This document shows positions 143-8,309 of a stretch of 64,000 nucleotides of DNA, piece by piece. The notes beneath the pieces were generated by a model. That model was given only the letters and a program-made list of their open reading frames with translations, did no database searches and had not been told where the DNA came from. Each line of letters opens with the position of its first letter. Within the stretch, counting starts at the first letter, position 1. The translations under genes and the position numbers were made by a program. The stretch is from Salinivirgaceae bacterium. Lineage in GTDB: Bacteria > Bacteroidota > Bacteroidia > Bacteroidales > SZUA-534. The stretch is taken from the NCBI GenBank assembly GCA_017617355.1, contig JAFZWI010000023.1:10899-74898 (forward strand), given 5' to 3'.

Positions 143-982
143 ATGAAAAAAAGATTCATGTTTGCAACTATGATGGTTGCTATGTGTTCAACAGCTCTTT
201 TCACCTCTTGCGGTGAAGAAGAAGCACTTGAAGGTTCTGTAGAGGAGCAATTCAAATTTGGTGAGTTGACAGCTATTGCTAACCCTGATGGTACAATAGA
301 TATCAGCGGTCACATTGCTACCAACACCAAACTTAAAGAGTTCGCTTTGTACAACGAAGATGGTTCTATCGCTTACGATTTTCTTGAGGCTAATGACCAG
401 GTTAAAACCAAAAACAAAGAGTTGGATGAGAATGGCAAAGCTGTTAAAGACAAATTCTTTGAGCTTGACATTAAGTCAACTGGCAAATTACCTGTAGCTA
501 TCTATACTCTTAGAATTAAAACCAAAAAGGCTGGCACTTTTGAAGAGGGTATTGGTGAGGCATATAAATTTATGGTAGGTACTGGCGCAAATGACACTCT
601 TGGTTCACAAATTTCTCTGCGCGACAAAAAATGCTTTAAGTTGGGTGATTTCTATAATACAGAAGATGGCTCTTTGAAAAATGCAGCATATGCTAACAGC
701 ATTGAGATATATCTAACATCTGACCTCAAAATTGCTTCTGCAAAAGGTTTGAAAGTTGCCACAACAACAAATGACGTAAGATCTCAAGAGGAAGCAGATG
801 CTATCAAAGCTGCTTTAGCTGACGCAAAAGTATATGAAGCCAATAAATGTGTTATCACAACTACAGATTGCATCGCTACTTATAATATAGAAGTTATTGA
901 TGCAAATGCTGTTTGGTTAAGCGGCGTTCGTATCAATTCTAAGGGTACTTTGAAGATTGACACTTCAGCTGCTTTCAATTAA
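143..982 (+). CDS. Hypothetical lipoprotein
   Basis: 279 aa; signal peptide II MKKRF...LFTSC followed by an acidic stretch (GEEEALE) like the Bacteroidota lipoprotein export signal; followed by a terminator. Confidence 0.8.
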   Translation: MKKRFMFATMMVAMCSTALFTSCGEEEALEGSVEEQFKFGELTAIANPDGTIDISGHIATNTKLKEFALYNEDGSIAYDFLEANDQVKTKNKELDENGKAVKDKFFELDIKSTGKLPVAIYTLRIKTKKAGTFEEGIGEAYKFMVGTGANDTLGSQISLRDKKCFKLGDFYNTEDGSLKNAAYANSIEIYLTSDLKIASAKGLKVATTTNDVRSQEEADAIKAALADAKVYEANKCVITTTDCIATYNIEVIDANAVWLSGVRINSKGTLKIDTSAAFN

Positions 983-1006
983 TCAGTAATTGTCAAATAA
1001 CGAACG

Positions 1007-1037
1007 AGAGCCGCTCAATAGAGCGGCTCTTTTTTTT
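1007..1037 (+). terminator. Rho-independent terminator
   Basis: agagccgctc-aata-gagcggctct perfect stem followed by a T tract. Confidence 0.9.
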
Positions 1038-1065: not shown

Positions 1066-1145
1066 TACCGAAAACTTTTGCCGGTTTTACAAAAAGTTTT
1101 CACTATACTGAAAACTTTTGCTACTTTTGTAAAAAGTTTTCAGTA
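1066..1145. repeat. Two tandem 40-bp palindromic units (TACTGAAAACTTTT-N12-AAAAGTTTTCAGTA)
   Basis: 1066-1105 taccgaaaacttttgccggttttacaaaaagttttcacta; 1106-1145 tactgaaaacttttgctacttttgtaaaaagttttcagta; the spacer of copy 2 contains a TACTTTTG -7 promoter motif. Confidence 0.9.
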
Positions 1146-1153
1146 GAAGCGTT

Positions 1154-2350
1154 ATGATAAGCAGAGAAAAATACATCGCACAAATCAGGCCGTTTTACGA
1201 GAGCGACTTGATAAAGGTCATTACCGGAATTCGCCGCTGCGGAAAGTCGGTGGTGTTGGAGCAAATAAAGAACGAACTTGCTGCGCAAGGCAAACGAATC
1301 GCCTATCTGAATTTTGAGGATAGGCAAGTTTCGGCAACAATAACAACCGATTTGGAATTGACCGAACACATTGAAAATGAACTTTCGGCCAACCCAAACG
1401 AGAAACTGTATGTGTTTTTGGACGAGGTTCAGATGGTGAAAAATTGGAATCTTGCCTGCCGTTCGCTTCGGTTGCGGAATGTTTCGCTTTTCATCACCGG
1501 CTCAAACTCGAAACTGCTTTCACGCGAGTTTACAAAGGAGTTGAGCGGACGTTATGTCTCTTTCACAATCAGACCGTTTGTGTATAAGGAGATTGTGGAA
1601 TATGCCAAAGAGCTCGGTCGCAATGTGTCGGTGAATGATTATCTTATTTATGGCGGCTTTCCGAAACGTTTTGAATTTCAAGGACAAGAAGAGATGCTGC
1701 GCTACTTGAACGATTTGGATGAGACAATTGTCCTGAACGACATCATTAACCGCTACAGCATTCGTAAGCAAGAGATTTTCAAGAAGTTGGTGAACTATGT
1801 GCTTATATCGAATGCAAGAATTTTCAGCTCAAATTCGGTTCACCGCTATTTAAAATCGCAAAAGACTGATTGTTCGATAAATACGGTGATGAAATATATC
1901 GATTATCTTGAAGAAGCCTACGTTGTAAGGAAACTTCCGCAGTATTCAACCAAGGCGAAAAAGCAACTTGAGTTTTACACCAAACTCTATGATGAGGATG
2001 TGGCATTTAACTCAATCCGCCAACCGAACAATCGTTTTGATATTACACATAACCTTGAGAATGTAGTATATAACGAGCTTGTATATATGGGCTACAACCT
2101 AACGGTGTATAACGTGAACGACAAGGAAATCGACTTTTTGGCCGCTAAAAACGGGCGGGAATATCTTGTGCAGGTTGCGTACAGCGTAGTTGAGGAAATC
2201 ACCTACAAGCGTGAGTTTGCGGCATTTAACGAGCTCGATAACTCGCGCAAAAAGATTCTCATAACCAACGATGATAACGATTTCTCGACAAGCACCGTGC
2301 AGCATATACGGCTTGCTGATTTCTTGATGATGAACGATTTAGAAGGTTAG
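1154..2350 (+). CDS. AAA+ ATP-binding protein (AAA_14 + DUF4143, COG1373-type) with C-terminal PD-(D/E)XK-like domain
   Basis: Walker A GIRRCGKS, Walker B VFLDEVQ, ITGSNS, YGGFP, C-terminal LENVVYNEL...EIDF...LVQVAY. Confidence 0.9.
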   Translation: MISREKYIAQIRPFYESDLIKVITGIRRCGKSVVLEQIKNELAAQGKRIAYLNFEDRQVSATITTDLELTEHIENELSANPNEKLYVFLDEVQMVKNWNLACRSLRLRNVSLFITGSNSKLLSREFTKELSGRYVSFTIRPFVYKEIVEYAKELGRNVSVNDYLIYGGFPKRFEFQGQEEMLRYLNDLDETIVLNDIINRYSIRKQEIFKKLVNYVLISNARIFSSNSVHRYLKSQKTDCSINTVMKYIDYLEEAYVVRKLPQYSTKAKKQLEFYTKLYDEDVAFNSIRQPNNRFDITHNLENVVYNELVYMGYNLTVYNVNDKEIDFLAAKNGREYLVQVAYSVVEEITYKREFAAFNELDNSRKKILITNDDNDFSTSTVQHIRLADFLMMNDLEG

Positions 2351-2360
2351 CGTGATTCTC

Positions 2361-2400
2361 TACTGAAAACTTTTGCCGATTTTATAAAAAGTTTTCAGTA
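2361..2400. repeat. Third copy of the 40-bp palindromic unit
   Basis: tactgaaaacttttgccgattttataaaaagttttcagta; contains the last codon and stop of pgeF on the - strand. Confidence 0.9.
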
Positions 2401-3174
2401 AGCAATTTCTCCTTCCACCATTATCCCCGTTCCAATCCGTCCCAAAGTGTGATTGTGCCTGTACGAGAAAAACTCATTCGGGTGGCATTTAGTGCAGATT
2501 TGCGCCACCTCAATGTTTTCTGGCAGCAGGCCGGCTGTAATAAGATGCTGACGATTGACGGCCGTCAAATCGATGTGCGGACGCAGCCATTCGGGTTTGT
2601 GCAAGATAGCTTCGGGCCATGATGAGAACTGTTCGGCAACATCGTCACCCACCTCGAAACAGCAACCCCCAATGCACGGGCCCAACGCTGCAACCATACG
2701 GCTTGGCTTTGAGCCGAACTCGCGTTGCATGGCCTCAACTGTAAGGCGAACAATACCGCCCACAGTGCCGCGCCAGCCAGCGTGAATGGCCGCAGCCGCA
2801 CGGTTTTCAGCGTCGTAGAGAAGAACCGATTGGCAATCGGCTGTCAGCACCATAATGCAAACGCCTGGCTGATTGGTTATAAGCGCATCGGTATTAGGAA
2901 TACGGCTGTCAATAGTAAGAGCGCCAAGGCCGGCATTAGTTCCGTTTACAACGGCGATATTTAGGCTGTGTGTCTGCTCGGCGGTTGTCAGACGGTTGAT
3001 GTTGAAACCAACTGAAGCAGCCAAGCGACGGCGGTTTTCCACACCGTTGGGGCTGCGTAGATTGATATCGCCCAACGCACCCTGACGGCACGAAGTCACA
3101 AAATGGCGTATACCACCACACCGGTCCAGACTGCCAAAGGTGTAATACGGAAAATCGGCGGCATGAAAAAGCAT
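2395..3174 (-). CDS. pgeF: Peptidoglycan editing factor PgeF / YfiH (laccase-domain protein)
   Basis: Motifs QTHS, TDALIT, VLTADC, AIHAGWRG, GPCIG..CFEVG, CTKC..FFSYR; ATG at 3174 (TTG at 3180 is an alternative start). Confidence 0.9.
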   Translation of the reverse strand: MLFHAADFPYYTFGSLDRCGGIRHFVTSCRQGALGDINLRSPNGVENRRRLAASVGFNINRLTTAEQTHSLNIAVVNGTNAGLGALTIDSRIPNTDALITNQPGVCIMVLTADCQSVLLYDAENRAAAAIHAGWRGTVGGIVRLTVEAMQREFGSKPSRMVAALGPCIGGCCFEVGDDVAEQFSSWPEAILHKPEWLRPHIDLTAVNRQHLITAGLLPENIEVAQICTKCHPNEFFSYRHNHTLGRIGTGIMVEGEIAY

Positions 3175-3186
3175 GAACAACGACGC

Positions 3187-5550
3187 TTATGCGTTTCCTG
3201 AATCGATGCCGTGCTCTTTCATATATGATTGTATCTCAAGCATCAGGCGGTCTTTGAGCTCATGCTCGCGGTTGCGGTTCTCCGATACAACAATCACATG
3301 GTCAGGCTGCTCGTTAAGATACACAACCTTATAGTATTCAGTGGTGCGCAGTTGCTTTCCGCGAATCAGCGATTTATTCTTACGCCGAGCCTTGCCAGTA
3401 TTCAGCAATGCTGGCCAGAACTCGTTAATGAACTGTTCGCGCGCCACTTCGTCTTGCGTGACAAGCGAGACATACGGAACACCGATAAACGTGTCGCCGA
3501 CATTGTAGAAGAACATCAGGCGCTTCGACATGCTCATTATTTTTCCGCTCAAATCGATTTCGGCAACCATTAATCCTTTGTAGTAGGCGCTGATTTGCGC
3601 GTTCAGCTGGTCTTGCCGCTTGGTGGCCTCCTCTTGTGTGGCCTGCATCTCCTCAAGGTTCTGGCGCATTTCCTCCTCATGCTGCGACAGCACTTCGGTC
3701 TGTTCGTTCGACTGCTCAAGCAGCTTTGCGTTGTGTGCGTTGATGCTGACATTGGAAACAGCCGACGCCATATTCTCGCACAGATGCTCCACAAAATCTA
3801 TCTTGTATTTCTCAATATGATTGTACGATATAAGCTCCATTATGCCGTAAATCTCATCGTTGACAATCATCGGAGCGAGCAGCAGGTTGCGCGGCTTCTG
3901 CTCCTCGCGTTTGCCCTGTGTGAATGTCACAAAGCTGTCGGGCACATCTTCGAGATAGATAAGACGCATCTCGTCGATAACGCGGCCGAAAAGACCGTCT
4001 TTAGCCGTTACAACGGTGTCGAGCATTATCTGCTTTCCGTAGGCTATGGCGGCCTTGCTCTCGAACTTCAGCTCTGTGTCATATTCATCTTCTATCTTGA
4101 AATAAACCGCGCCCTGCACAATATTCATATATTTCAGCAGCTCGTTAAGCACGTTGTAGGCGAAGCTGTCAGCGTTCTCGTTCTCCTGACGGATAATCTC
4201 GCCAAATTCGGCCAGGCCGTGGGTAACCCAGTTGCGCTGTGCGTCGAATTCTTTCTTCTGGTCCTCCTCCTCTTTGGCTTTAACAAGGCTTTTCTGCATG
4301 GCGATAAGCGACTCGCCCAGAGTGTCCTCGTTGCTGAGCAGCCGGTATTGGGCGTCGTAGTTGCCCTTGCCTATCTCTCCGGCAAAGTTCACCGATGCTT
4401 TCAAGCCGTCGCACAACACTTCAATCGACTCGGTAAGGTCGGTTATCTCGCTCTTAATACGTGTCTTATGCATCTTCTCGTCGCTGATGACACCCAGCGA
4501 CAAGTCGGCCAGTTTGTTGTTAATGCCGACAATGGTTCCCGATATTGTCCGGGCCACTATTGAAATAACTATCGAAATGATAATGAGGCCAATAATGGTT
4601 ATGATAAGCAAACGCAGAAGACTGCTGCTCCGTTGTTTGAAGCTGCTCTTCCACGACGATACAGTAACCACGTGCCAATAACTCTGCGCGTTGTCAAAAC
4701 ATGCCTTGTTGCAAACAATAATCGATTTCTCGCCGTTGATATCGTTGCCTATGTAAAGAGTGTCGCGGGCAATACTGTCGATGTCCGCAACAATAGTCTG
4801 TTTCGTACCTGTCAGTTTGGTGTCGCGGCTGTAGAGATATTTTCCGGATTCTGAAATCAGATAATTCTTTTCGTCTTTGCCGTCGGGGTTCAGCACAAGC
4901 AGTTTCTTCAAATCGTGTATCGAAAGGTCGATGCCCACAACGCCCATAAACTCATCCCAGACGATTATTGGAGCCACTATTGATGTCATCAGAATGGAGT
5001 CTTTGCCGTTATAAGAATAGAAGTAGGGCTCCACCATTTTGGTCTTTTTTGTGTCGCGCGGCAGGGTGTAGAAATCCTCCTCGTATTGCGTGTCGGTTGT
5101 CTCTTCCGATTTTATCTCTTCGTCAACCCGATAGAAAGAGGGCGAGAAGCTGCCAATGGAATTGGAGTTAACCTTGTCAATGTAGTTTTCGTCAAGATTG
5201 TCGATGCTGTTCGGCTCCCAAATCGACCAGGCTGCACAGAGGTCAGGATTTTCCAATAATGTCTGGTGCAAAAGGTCGCTGAAGAATGGCCGGCGCTCGG
5301 TTTCCTCAATATCGTTGTAGTTGGCCATTGTGGCAGCCAAGGTCTCCACTATCTTTGTGCGGCTTGCAACAAGTCCCTCAATGCGGCTGGTTATGTCGCT
5401 CGATTCCTGTTTCATTTCGGTGTACGAGTCGGCTTTGAGATTTTCCGCCACTTCGTAGATGATATAACCCATTGCGGCTATATACATTATAAGCGATGTG
5501 CCCAACAGGTTGAGCACCATTTTCCGGTGGATAGTCTTTTTAAAAATCAT
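3187..5550 (-). CDS. Membrane sensor: TM-dCache-TM-HAMP-GAF-coiled coil-PAS-like, no kinase domain
   Basis: Two TM helices flanking a Cache-like region (EPYFYSY..ILMTSIVAPI..FMGVVGID), GAF (LLLAPMIVNDEIYGIMELIS), EEEMRQNLEEMQATQEE coil. Confidence 0.8.
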   Translation of the reverse strand: MIFKKTIHRKMVLNLLGTSLIMYIAAMGYIIYEVAENLKADSYTEMKQESSDITSRIEGLVASRTKIVETLAATMANYNDIEETERRPFFSDLLHQTLLENPDLCAAWSIWEPNSIDNLDENYIDKVNSNSIGSFSPSFYRVDEEIKSEETTDTQYEEDFYTLPRDTKKTKMVEPYFYSYNGKDSILMTSIVAPIIVWDEFMGVVGIDLSIHDLKKLLVLNPDGKDEKNYLISESGKYLYSRDTKLTGTKQTIVADIDSIARDTLYIGNDINGEKSIIVCNKACFDNAQSYWHVVTVSSWKSSFKQRSSSLLRLLIITIIGLIIISIVISIVARTISGTIVGINNKLADLSLGVISDEKMHKTRIKSEITDLTESIEVLCDGLKASVNFAGEIGKGNYDAQYRLLSNEDTLGESLIAMQKSLVKAKEEEDQKKEFDAQRNWVTHGLAEFGEIIRQENENADSFAYNVLNELLKYMNIVQGAVYFKIEDEYDTELKFESKAAIAYGKQIMLDTVVTAKDGLFGRVIDEMRLIYLEDVPDSFVTFTQGKREEQKPRNLLLAPMIVNDEIYGIMELISYNHIEKYKIDFVEHLCENMASAVSNVSINAHNAKLLEQSNEQTEVLSQHEEEMRQNLEEMQATQEEATKRQDQLNAQISAYYKGLMVAEIDLSGKIMSMSKRLMFFYNVGDTFIGVPYVSLVTQDEVAREQFINEFWPALLNTGKARRKNKSLIRGKQLRTTEYYKVVYLNEQPDHVIVVSENRNREHELKDRLMLEIQSYMKEHGIDSGNA

Positions 5551-5582: not shown

Positions 5583-8309
5583 TTACTCATCAATCAGACC
5601 GATAAGCTCTGTAAGCTCATTGTAGGCCTCTTCCCATTTGCTCTTTGCGTCGACAAACACTTGCGGGATACGCTCGGTGCCCGAATTTTTCGTTATCGAG
5701 TTTATAATGGTGTCGAGCATGTCGGTTATCGGCTTAACTCCCAGATAATTGATTTTTGTCCGCAGGGCCTTCACCTCCATTTTCAGCACTTTGTAATTGT
5801 TGCTCTCCATGGTTTTTTCGATGTCAGCAAACTGTGCGGGAATCTGCTCGTAGTAGCGGCGCAGCATGTTGTCAATCTTCTTCTCGTCGTTTTTGTAAGC
5901 GGCGTTCATGTTGGTCAGGTCGATAAGGCGGCGCTTCTTGTTAGCCGATGTTTTCAGCATGCTTTTCAACTCCTCTGGTATCACGCCTTCGGCAACCATA
6001 TCTATCTGAGCCTCGTATTTCTTTTGTGTTGTTATGTCGAATCCAACAGCAACAATATCTACTATCTTCTTTGTGTCGTCGTAGATTGGAATGAAATGCA
6101 TGCGGAGCCAAACGGCGTCTTTTCCCTCGCCAAATTGCTCGTCCTCCTCCATAATGTTGCCTGCCAGTATCTCGTCCCAGAAGTGCTCATGCGCCTTGGC
6201 CTCAACTTCGGTCATCTGGACATCGGCCTTGTGGCGTTTGCCCACAACCTTGTTGCGACGCGTCTGCACAAAGTTCAGGAACTCCTCGTTGGCGTCGGTA
6301 ACGCGTTGCTGAAGGTCGTAGTGGACTATTGGCACAATGTTGCTAAGTGATTCGATAACCGCCAACAGCCCCTCCTCTTTATGCGTTGTCTCCTCCTGCG
6401 TGGCCTGCATTTCCTCCATGTTCTGGCGAATCTCCTCCTCTTGCTGTTCAAGCACTTCGGCCTGCTGTTTGGCTTTGCTGAGCAGCAGTGTCGTCTGAGC
6501 GTTTATCTTCACTGTCGACAATGTGGATGCTATGTTCTCCGACAGCTTTTCGACAAATGCTATCTGATACTGCTCGAAAACCTTGAGCGAGTAAAGCTCA
6601 ATGGCGCCCACCAATTTGCTGTTGTAGATGAGCGGCACAATCAAGGCCGATTTTGGCAGCGAACGGCCCAATCCTGAGCCGATGCGCTCCATATCATCGG
6701 GTATCTCACTGATGAATATCGTCTCGCGCTCGTGATAGATGCGCCCCATAAGGCCGTCGCTAGGGCTGAAGAACGTTTTTTCGCCCTTTTCTTTGCCGAA
6801 GCCCAAATGCGACACCAGTTCAAGCCCCTCGCGGTCCTCGGGAACAATGTAGAGAGCGCCCATTTGCGCGTTAAGGTAAAGTGTCAGTGTCTTTATTATC
6901 TCAGCGCTTATTGTCTGCATATCTTTGTTGTCGATACGCAAAACCTTGTTGAACAGGTTGATACCAGACGACGCCCAGTTCAGTTGCTCCTCCTCGGCGT
7001 GACGCTGGTTTTCCTCCTCTTTGGCCTCATCGAGGCTCGATTTCATCTCGATAATGGCGTTGCCCAGAACATCACGGTCGCTCAGCGGACTGAATTTGTA
7101 GTCGGAGTTGCCGTTGCCTATGTTCTCGGCAAATTTGGTTACCTGCAGCAGACCTTCGACCACCTTGTTCGACGAATCGGTCATCTGCCCAAGCTCGTTG
7201 TTGCTCTCAACACGCATCTCAAGCGTCTCGTCAACCTTGCCCTGCGCCAGACGGTTGATAACCTCGTTAACCTTCTTTATCGGGTTGACAATGCCCTGTG
7301 TCAGTATGGCGATGATGAGCGCAAGCAGCAACAGACCGATAAGAATGGCGCGTGTTACCACGTTGAGAGATTCGGCCATTTGTTCGTCGATGTTATCGTC
7401 GGTAACAACCACTATTTTCCATTGTGCGTTAAGGTTTTCGGGCAATATGGTTTGAATGTTGCAATAAGTGTCACCAGTGCTTCTATTTATCAAAGTACGA
7501 TTCACAACATCTTCCGATGACTCGTAGAGGAAGCCGCCAATCAATGTGTCTATCTCGTTGTAGAGTTGGCCGTTGAAGTTCTTGTCAGGGTTAGCGGCGA
7601 TAATGTGTCCCTTGGGCGAGAGGATGAAAACATGCTGGTTTCGTTCTTTCCCTATTGAATCGATTATTGTCTGCAGCGAGTTGGCGTTGATGTCTATCCC
7701 TATCACACCGGCAAAACTGCCGTTTTTGTTTATCGGCATTGCCATTGGGATGCGCATGGTGCGCTTGGCTGTCGAACCGTCGTAAAGATAGTAATCAGGT
7801 TCGGCTATGATTGGAGCACCGGCGTCTTTACATATAAAGTAGGGGTCCTCCATTTCGTCGTAAACCTGAGCTATGGTTTTTGAGCTGACCTCGGCACCGT
7901 ACGATGTGTTCTCGGCTTTAAGTGTGGTACGCCCCTCCTCGCTCGAGGCGTCAAGATACTGGCTGTCGAAGCTGAGCCACACAAACGACAATGCCTGGTT
8001 GTCCTCGCAGGCTTTCTTAATGGTTTTGTTGTAAAACGCGTCGTTTCCGGAGAAAGCCTGGTCATCGACCGACTCCACTATCGACCGCAAAGTCAGCAAT
8101 GTCTGATATTGGTCGGACGACATATTGCTGATTATTGTCGATACGTCGCTGATAACTGCGGCGTCCTTCTTTTCCATTGACTCGACAATCGAATTTCGGA
8201 ACTGCCGTGTGGCAAACCCCGAAGCAAACAGGATTACGGCGAAAACTGTTCCTAAAACCAAGCATAGCACTCTGATACTGAGGCGGATTCTGATTTTCAT
8301 ATCTATCAT
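5583..8309 (-). CDS. Paralogous membrane sensor: dCache-HAMP-GAF-PAS with C-terminal HPt-like helical domain
   Basis: Same architecture (FAGVIGID, ALIVPLIYNSKLVGAIELYS, EEEIRQNMEEMQATQEE), PAS/PAC (DANEEF...WLRMHFIPI...GFDIT), C-terminal IDLTNM...LRTKINYLG. Confidence 0.8.
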   Translation of the reverse strand: MIDMKIRIRLSIRVLCLVLGTVFAVILFASGFATRQFRNSIVESMEKKDAAVISDVSTIISNMSSDQYQTLLTLRSIVESVDDQAFSGNDAFYNKTIKKACEDNQALSFVWLSFDSQYLDASSEEGRTTLKAENTSYGAEVSSKTIAQVYDEMEDPYFICKDAGAPIIAEPDYYLYDGSTAKRTMRIPMAMPINKNGSFAGVIGIDINANSLQTIIDSIGKERNQHVFILSPKGHIIAANPDKNFNGQLYNEIDTLIGGFLYESSEDVVNRTLINRSTGDTYCNIQTILPENLNAQWKIVVVTDDNIDEQMAESLNVVTRAILIGLLLLALIIAILTQGIVNPIKKVNEVINRLAQGKVDETLEMRVESNNELGQMTDSSNKVVEGLLQVTKFAENIGNGNSDYKFSPLSDRDVLGNAIIEMKSSLDEAKEEENQRHAEEEQLNWASSGINLFNKVLRIDNKDMQTISAEIIKTLTLYLNAQMGALYIVPEDREGLELVSHLGFGKEKGEKTFFSPSDGLMGRIYHERETIFISEIPDDMERIGSGLGRSLPKSALIVPLIYNSKLVGAIELYSLKVFEQYQIAFVEKLSENIASTLSTVKINAQTTLLLSKAKQQAEVLEQQEEEIRQNMEEMQATQEETTHKEEGLLAVIESLSNIVPIVHYDLQQRVTDANEEFLNFVQTRRNKVVGKRHKADVQMTEVEAKAHEHFWDEILAGNIMEEDEQFGEGKDAVWLRMHFIPIYDDTKKIVDIVAVGFDITTQKKYEAQIDMVAEGVIPEELKSMLKTSANKKRRLIDLTNMNAAYKNDEKKIDNMLRRYYEQIPAQFADIEKTMESNNYKVLKMEVKALRTKINYLGVKPITDMLDTIINSITKNSGTERIPQVFVDAKSKWEEAYNELTELIGLIDE

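Follow-up and report, generated by a model that had tools for sequence, protein, structure and literature searches.

Introduction

In IS10/IS50-type elements the transposase binds terminal repeats that overlap its own promoter, and integron cassettes, promoterless and found with an integrase or attI nearby, and Xer-dependent modules carry imperfect attC sites and dif sites of 11-6-11 layout, respectively. Closest by protein is PDC-S01 (COG1373), in which an ATPase is described as joined to a domain of the PD-(D/E)XK superfamily and which is given as the fourth most common prokaryotic defence candidate, not validated (PMC12988326); among single loci in rumen genomes it is reported to be the most frequent (PMC13356809), and one table row lists COG1373 among genes shared between genera (PMC10782964). 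PDC-S01 was flagged as a defence candidate for being embedded in defence loci, and the DUF4143 family is described as PD-(D/E)XK-like and of unknown function. Here we analysed one such gene, an AAA_14/DUF4143 ATPase gene accompanied by three 40-bp palindromes, in a 64,000-nt stretch of a Salinivirgaceae bacterium genome (the window, to which all coordinates refer; the genome, a 2.56-Mb assembly that is 82% complete, is coded G000). A first-pass annotation of the window had proposed that gene and palindromes make up a self-regulated mobile cassette, and comparison of sequences largely bears this reading out.

In the portions of the literature on PDC-S01 and DUF4143 that we consulted, we found no mention of flanking palindromes, self-regulation or cassette mobility, no search having been aimed at the palindrome itself; the stem "palindrom" has 0 occurrences in the main text of the guilt-by-embedding preprint (10.1101/2024.01.29.577857).

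Results

An ATPase gene enclosed by three palindromes

The segment 1066–2400 is probably a horizontally mobile single-gene cassette that encodes a STAND/Orc-like AAA+ ATPase, with the palindromes as putative operators of the encoded protein. A scan with the pattern TACTGAAAACTTTT-N12-AAAAGTTTTCAGTA recovered the three units that the first-pass annotation had described, each of 40 bp with 14-nt arms and a 12-nt spacer: copy 1, the distal one (1066..1105; 2 mismatches, one per arm), copy 2, the proximal one and putative operator over the promoter (1106..1145; 0 mismatches), and copy 3, the right cassette end (2361..2400; 0 mismatches), none of them assigned a strand. Dinucleotide shuffles of the sequence gave 0.00 matches. 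Copies 1 and 2 directly abut, copy 2 ends 8 nt before the ATG of the ATPase gene (1154..2350, plus strand), and copy 3 begins 10 nt past its stop codon, so that the cassette, from the paired upstream palindromes through the gene to the single downstream one, spans 1335 bp (1066..2400, plus strand). These are the sole copies in the G000 assembly, where a reversed-pattern control gave 0 and 11-nt single half-sites occur elsewhere only twice. At other loci the symmetry is mostly one base longer (C...G), giving 15-nt arms.

The arms are conserved, as had been noted, and the spacer, which had been called variable, is constrained: the spacers of copies 1 and 3 are alike in type (GCCGGTTTTACA and GCCGATTTTATA), and that of copy 2 is of a promoter type. 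The latter contains TACTTTTG (1122..1129, plus strand), which reads as a fit to the Bacteroidota −7 box TAnnTTTG and agrees with the earlier assignment. Similarly, copy 3 does provide, within its right arm, the final codon (TAC) and stop (TGA) of the neighbouring pgeF gene.

The ends of the cassette are hairpin-forming, with predicted folding energies of −10.8 and −12 kcal/mol as single-stranded DNA (z −5.4 to −6.7). A predicted hairpin of this stability, together with solo copies found between convergent genes (see below), could suggest that the palindromes work at the RNA level, as terminators or as a regulatory hairpin. We consider this extremely improbable: transcription from a box in the spacer would include no more of the proximal copy than its right arm, the palindromes are not followed by a T-run, distinct GC-rich terminators are present on either side of a solo copy and after the lipoprotein gene to the left of the cassette, and an Rfam scan of 900–2600 returned no family at gathering score.

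Boundaries of the transferred unit

Close orthologues of the ATPase (74–93% identity) are present in only 4 of 16 genomes of the genus (G000, G018, G024 and G027). DNA homology between G000 and G018 extends from 1066 to 2398 (85%), and between G000 and G024 from 1066 to 2400 (87%), the boundaries in both cases being the outer palindrome edges. The neighbours differ in each genome: the lipoprotein gene and pgeF in G000, ParE and an ABC transporter gene in G018, and two open reading frames (ORFs) of 116 and 166 aa in G024. Judged from these alignments, the comparison shows that the outer palindromes mark the physical ends of the transferred DNA.

Beside the ABC transporter gene, G018 has two palindromes, the ATPase gene and a third palindrome, and G023 has two abutting palindromes; no ATPase orthologue was matched in G023 or in G021 at E ≤ 1e-20. 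The second palindrome of G023 combines a proximal-type left arm with an outer-type spacer, a typing that depends on a single diagnostic base and on agreement at 9 of 12 spacer positions, and on this thin evidence it may be the product of a crossover between copies 2 and 3. Five cassettes carry a distal copy as well as a downstream one; the spacers of these two copies match on average at 10.8 of 12 positions within a locus and at 6.9 of 12 between loci, and the observed sum is attained in only 1 of 120 permutations. In one of the five, the downstream copy lies in inverted orientation. Such likeness between the outer copies would fit either a site duplicated on insertion or an exchange between copies by recombination. 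No short target-site duplication was found in any of the flanked cassettes (8 of 8).

The same unit in four phyla

We scanned one-genome-per-species collections with the exact 22 arm bases, which gave 117 stretches, and fetched 80 loci. A homologue of the ATPase (tblastn, 28–93% identity) adjoins the palindrome at 51 of the 80 loci, and Pfam adds two distant homologues (L090 and L104); by distinct contigs, with the six contigs that hold two loci each counted once, palindrome and ATPase occur together on 48 of 74. The palindrome is not the dispersed genomic repeat that the first-pass annotation had raised as a counter-explanation. According to the record titles, the hosts belong to Bacteroidota, Bacillota, Fibrobacterota and Spirochaetota; they are gut or rumen genomes of Bacteroidales, Clostridia, Bacilli, Selenomonadaceae, Fibrobacter and Treponema/Spirochaetales. 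A Treponema copy encodes a protein 81% identical to that of the window, with DNA homology from 1066/1070 to 2332. Furthermore, the flanking 600 bp are unrelated among 33–35 unique cassettes (tblastx), with similarity in 5 of 528 upstream and 3 of 595 downstream pairs, all of them close relatives. Since the flanks are unrelated, the sole conserved unit consists of the palindromes and the ATPase gene.

Homologues below 60% identity were found on 257 plasmid records and 19 phage-labelled records, and one unverified 4.7-kb phage-labelled record carries a 62% homologue with a variant palindrome upstream. As a separate observation, L090 (1998–3368) encodes a distant AAA_14/DUF4143 paralogue that tblastn missed at E 1e-5 and that has the same palindrome arms on both sides; the same Bacteroidales genome holds a second flanked cassette on another contig (L093).

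An empty allele at the lipoprotein–pgeF slot

In the window the cassette lies between a lipoprotein gene (143..1037, plus strand; no Pfam match), which has its own GC-rich hairpin and T-run terminator at 1007–1037, and pgeF (2395..3180, minus strand; Cu-oxidase_4 family), which lies outside the cassette. Among the genus genomes this slot is retained only in G000, G020 and G021. G021 has an antitoxin–PIN pair followed by one palindrome, and G020 a decayed antitoxin–PIN pair in which the sequence between two ACTTTTGCC microhomologies is deleted, one of these microhomologies lying inside the palindrome. This comparison marks the slot (983–2400 in the window; L029 in G021 and L255 in G020) as a small hotspot of variation. 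On the right, the junctions in G000 and G021 differ by 21 nt, and for this reason the two look like separate insertions. We also considered copy 3 as old host sequence shared with G021 and dropped the idea, given the 21-nt difference between the junctions and an empty allele that has no palindrome.

This allele comes from metagenomes, for which the evidence consists of assembled contigs of four runs, not reads, so that rare forms and circles are invisible there. In an X5 contig (236 nt, depth 3.2), position 1039 is joined to 2399 with 11 other bases between them, giving an empty site without a palindrome; the contig has 2 differences over 109 nt of left flank, and its pgeF ends one residue earlier, with its own TAA. 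An empty site holding a single palindrome had been predicted, and this junction holds none. Nevertheless, the X5 junction and the alternative contents of the slot in G020 and G021 speak against the vertically fixed gene without empty alleles that the first-pass annotation had set against its own proposal. One X3 contig lacks exactly copy 1 (joint 1065→1106). The interior of the X3 cassette is 99.6–99.8% identical to the window (1 difference in 473 nt and 3 in 695 nt), and an X3 contig running from inside copy 3 into pgeF is ~88% identical (42 differences in 367 nt), the listed differences starting just past 2400. The left stretch of X3, in the lipoprotein gene, is likewise ~88% identical (18 differences and 8 gaps in 212 nt), with positions 888–940 among the differences listed. 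Contigs have loose ends at 1066 and 2400 in three runs.

A predicted promoter inside the proximal palindrome

TAnnTTTG (the Bacteroidota −7 box) and TTGACA are promoter consensus sequences, and we compared the proximal spacers for both in 38 cassettes (37 plus the window, with the truncated L051 counted); six members of 28–32% identity (L060, L074, L077, L095, L107 and L118) and the gene-fragment loci L054, L075 and L101 were left out. In Bacteroidota, TAnnTTTG is present in 11 of 14 spacers and TTGACA (at least 5 of 6 bases) in 0 of 14, and the palindrome ends at most 12 nt from the start codon in 10 of 14. The corresponding figures for Bacillota are 1, 12 and 0 of 15, the palindrome end lying mostly 21–27 nt from the start codon, and for Spirochaetota 0, 2 and 1 of 2, the Treponema copy reading TTGACA-N16-TAGAAT and then ATG. 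Fibrobacterota have neither box (0 of 7 for each), their spacers being A/T-rich and TATATT-like, and the palindrome ends within 12 nt of the start codon in 6 of 7. A second upstream palindrome is present at 27 loci, the window included, with a period of 40 or 41 bp at 24 of the 27, which is about four helical turns.

A self-repressed gene is expected to have an operator over its promoter and a DNA-binding domain in its product. Here the box lies in the proximal spacer in three of the four phyla, and the model of the protein predicts a winged helix; a protein sitting on the two proximal arms would cover the promoter, whose box lies between them. In its layout, the geometry of the proximal palindrome is that of an operator. 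The autoregulation suggested by the first-pass annotation thereby gains support at the level of comparison, through host-type promoter boxes in the proximal spacer and through other ATPase clades with upstream palindromes of their own.

For the latter, we used a protein-based sample of 80 homologue loci on metagenome contigs (29–64% identity; 75 usable). An inverted repeat with at least 12 matched arm bases lies within 160 bp upstream of 30 of the 75 homologues, compared with 1.3% of 1500 dinucleotide shuffles. The repeat sequence is clade-specific (TTATCAGTTATAACTGATAA in one clade, AAGTTATTTCG-type in another), and the closest relatives (55–64% identity) have symmetric changes in both arms (TGCAAACTTTT, TGAACACTTTTT and TGAAAGATTT). 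Among those 30 loci, an extra arm copy was found upstream in 9 and downstream in 3. Palindromes that belong to each clade would fit a site read by the clade's own protein, and would equally suit a hairpin.

These figures also bear on whether the palindromes could be pure operators of an ordinary, mostly vertical regulator gene, the downstream copy and the boundaries being by-products of palindrome instability. Upstream palindromes are the general rule and downstream ones rare; moreover, long perfect palindromes provoke deletions, and the microhomology deletion of G020 ends inside a palindrome. We regard this explanation as decidedly unlikely, however, in view of the 81% protein identity between Bacteroidales and Treponema, the three different contexts of the cassette within one genus, the empty allele, an interior that is 99.7% identical beside a right flank of ~88%, and flanks that are unrelated across loci.

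Two observations on other members of the family stand apart. The G000 assembly has nine DUF4143 matches, and the palindrome is absent from all seven other G000 paralogues examined; one AAA_14/DUF4143 paralogue (contig C112, 45243–46364, minus strand) has its own upstream 30-bp palindrome, ATTCCGAAAAAGTTATAACTTTTACGGAAT, and keeps E-x-K. On a Moraxella osloensis plasmid (NZ_CP024179.1, L252), two "recombinase family" genes enclose a 32% homologue, which also adjoins a Fic gene and has repeated TTGGAAA/TTTCCAA half-sites upstream of its start; as a carrier of the palindrome this plasmid homologue was rejected, since only such short TTGGAAA-type repeats, and not this palindrome, lie upstream.

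Palindromes without the gene

On about 26 of the 74 contigs the palindrome has no ATPase within the 2-kb flank on each side. Such solo copies often lie between convergent housekeeping genes, beside separate GC-rich terminators, and several adjoin restriction-modification or toxin–antitoxin genes; other small cassettes in variable slots near palindromes are PIN and ParE toxin–antitoxin genes. In one Clostridia locus (L042:1958–2197), six tandem 40-bp units stand upstream of a small XRE-type HTH_3 gene, with no ATPase in 3.3 kb. Truncated genes abut palindromes as well: L051 consists of a palindrome, residues 1–56 and a palindrome, and L054 of a palindrome followed by residues ~333 to the end. 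The solo, tandem and truncated loci look like footprints of loss, and they establish the palindromes as frequent breakpoints. At an esterase locus with a solo palindrome (G026, G029 and G030) the whole intergenic region is 94% identical and hence uninformative on selection for the palindrome; no clean empty site was found there in other species of the genus, in which the gene pair is separated or has a 74-bp spacer.

Such footprints would also suit palindromes that are the sites of a trans-acting site-specific recombinase (attC-like or Xer/dif-like), with the ATPase as a non-binding passenger. Solo and tandem copies without the gene, including the six units of L042, point in this direction, as do the deletion endpoints at palindromes in L051 and L054, the PIN toxin–antitoxin block that ends in the same palindrome in G021 and G023, where homology between the two stops at the palindrome edge, and the hybrid-like second palindrome of G023 with its proximal left arm and outer spacer. 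We nevertheless hold this explanation to be unlikely. The palindrome is tied to one protein clade, on the 48 of 74 contigs given above, and other clades have their own; the gene's promoter lies in the proximal spacer; and the empty site offers no palindrome to recombine with. Consistent with the first-pass annotation, which saw no recombinase in the window, we found no tyrosine recombinase (PF00589) on the window's contig, three being encoded on other contigs of the genome, and no serine recombinase (PF00239) anywhere in the G000 genome. Because nothing other than the ATPase is co-transferred, a recombinase of one and the same specificity would have to be present in hosts of all four phyla.

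A further candidate is a hairpin-dependent element of the IS200/IS605 type, such as a palindrome-associated transposable element or a repetitive extragenic palindrome (REP), moved by a Y1 (HUH) transposase encoded elsewhere. Perfect hairpin-forming ends, the lack of a target-site duplication and the one Y1_Tnp gene of the genome agree with it, yet we rate it as very improbable: the GC-rich hairpins that flank the Y1 gene are unrelated to the palindrome, only three palindrome copies are present in the genome, and both the spacer promoter and the association with an ATPase clade would be left unexplained. This single Y1 gene was accordingly rejected as the mobiliser. It is an IS200/RAYT-like gene on contig C96 (2244–2585) and has repeated GC-rich hairpins of the CCCCGAAGGGG type.

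Domains of the ATPase

The encoded protein of 398 aa has an N-terminal AAA_14 P-loop domain (PF13173, E 2.3e-30, aa 19–147) and a C-terminal DUF4143 (PF13635, E 2.2e-12, aa 196–343, above the curated cut-off), which are its sole Pfam domains, and it matches the PADLOC PDC-S01 model PDLC04787 over its full length (E 4.4e-118, aa 1–393). In 64 sequences, neither the Walker A motif G-x-x-x-x-GKS nor the DE motif varies. An AlphaFold2 model built with these 64 sequences (predicted local distance difference test score 94.5) has an AAA+ core, a helical lid, a winged helix (~aa 206–280) and an alpha-beta-beta-beta-alpha-beta domain of restriction-endonuclease-like fold (~aa 297–391). Among solved structures the model matches archaeal 2fna and 2qen best, followed by Orc1/Cdc6 on origin DNA and, after these, CED-4 and plant NLRs; searching the PDB by sequence with the ATPase gave no match. 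Within the winged helix, conservation is highest in the third helix (0.85 versus a mean of 0.74), and comparison of this recognition helix with palindrome variants gave weak hints only.

In the endonuclease-fold domain, E302 and D327 are invariant. An active PD-(D/E)XK site has D...(D/E)-x-K on the second and third core strands; here D327 is kept and the ExK position is altered. Six paralogues in the G000 genome retain E-x-K. E354 is invariant and K367 nearly so in the subfamily, and in the window ATPase these two residues could form a rearranged nuclease site; the endonuclease-fold site of the subfamily is either rearranged or no longer catalytic.

It is conceivable, though in our judgement doubtful, that the ATPase is itself the mobilising enzyme of a minimal mobile element, binding the terminal palindromes, which would double as its operator, and bringing about excision and insertion without a DDE, HUH, tyrosine or serine recombinase. 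If this were true, much of PDC-S01 would be a selfish mobile gene that appears defence-like through landing in restriction and variable loci.

Adjacent to pgeF, and outside the cassette, the window has two large tandem ORFs on the minus strand (3187–5550 and 5583–8309; 787 and 908 aa). They appear to be paralogues, each with an N-terminal membrane segment, and share an EEMRQN(L/M)EEMQATQEE stretch.

Discussion

Under the favoured reading, of a mobile cassette whose palindromes are operators of its own ATPase, the ATPase, as a dimer or as part of an oligomer, would occupy the two arms of the proximal palindrome and, since the spacer between them holds the promoter box, would block RNA polymerase, making the gene self-repressing. 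Binding may be made cooperative by the distal copy, which lies about four helical turns (40–41 bp) away. Insertion and loss would most likely come about as the palindromes break or recombine, with no classical recombinase supplied in cis.

Several points weigh against this reading. The scan required exact arms, and the association figure is conditioned on that choice; among the closest protein-sampled relatives (55–64% identity), the exact palindrome is present in 0 of 7. That the protein binds the palindrome we infer only from co-transfer and co-variation, and the symmetric arm changes fit a DNA hairpin equally well as a protein dimer. Palindromes persist without a cognate ATPase, in G021, in G023 and as solo copies, which an operator model alone fails to explain. 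Q-x-(A/C/T/S) stands in place of the canonical ExK in 117 of 121 subfamily sequences (the remaining 4 are fragments), which weakens models in which the protein cuts the ends. The empty-site allele comes from the single 236-nt X5 contig at depth 3.2, and the left-flank divergence of X3 is placed only by the differences listed, at 888–940. Finally, the downstream copy accompanies only 8 of 44 cassettes, and 3 of 30 loci in other clades, so that flanking is not general. Of the proposal in the first-pass annotation, then, the discrete mobile unit stands, with edges at 1066 and 2398/2400, different contexts and four phyla, and enclosure by a downstream copy proves exceptional.

AAA_14/DUF4143 genes (PDC-S01) are among the most numerous uncharacterised genes of gut and rumen bacteria and archaea, and are counted as defence genes without a functional test. 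Through the locus described here the family gains a defined DNA site of 40 bp, a circuit of predicted self-repression and a mobile unit whose empty site has been seen. It may represent a portable regulatory module, in which putative protein-binding arms stay constant over four phyla and the spacer carries a promoter box read by the host; constant arms with a host promoter box would suit a gene that needs to be expressed after transfer between hosts with differing promoters. These results also suggest caution, in that inferring defence from embedding in defence loci may pick up mobile cassettes.

Among described systems, PDC-S01 (COG1373) is the nearest, through the full-length model match and both Pfam domains, and the window subfamily differs from it in having no canonical ExK. 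The best whole-chain structural matches are SSO1545 (2fna, E 1.7e-11) and PABY2304 (2qen, E 2.6e-9), with template-modelling scores of 0.51–0.57 and 15–17% identity to the window ATPase; we know of no described function for either.

Like attC and dif modules, the cassette is a single-gene unit in variable slots, bounded by short palindromic sites and with no recombinase encoded in it, and it differs from them in its perfect or nearly perfect 14-12-14 units, its own promoter box inside the cassette, the lack of an integrase nearby (no PF00589 on the contig) and its confinement to one protein family. Compared with IS200/IS605 or REP elements, the hairpins at the Y1 gene are unrelated and the palindrome has three copies only in the genome. 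Archaeal Orc1/Cdc6 proteins with their origin recognition boxes, and plasmid Rep proteins with their iterons and operators, resemble the window ATPase and its locus in combining an AAA+ ATPase with a winged helix (2qby, 2v1u) and in placing the gene beside repeated binding sites, which are putative here; the window ATPase has neither sequence-level membership in Orc1/Cdc6 nor evidence of a role in replication, and its C-terminal endonuclease-fold domain is absent from Orc1/Cdc6. With respect to classical insertion sequences of the IS10/IS50 type, the cassette differs in having no DDE, HUH, tyrosine or serine catalytic domain, AAA_14 and DUF4143 being its only Pfam domains, and no target-site duplication (8 of 8 flanked cassettes), and most members of its family have no right-end copy; it nevertheless resembles them as a one-gene element with repeats, putatively bound by its own protein, at both ends, and with a predicted promoter in the left-end repeat.

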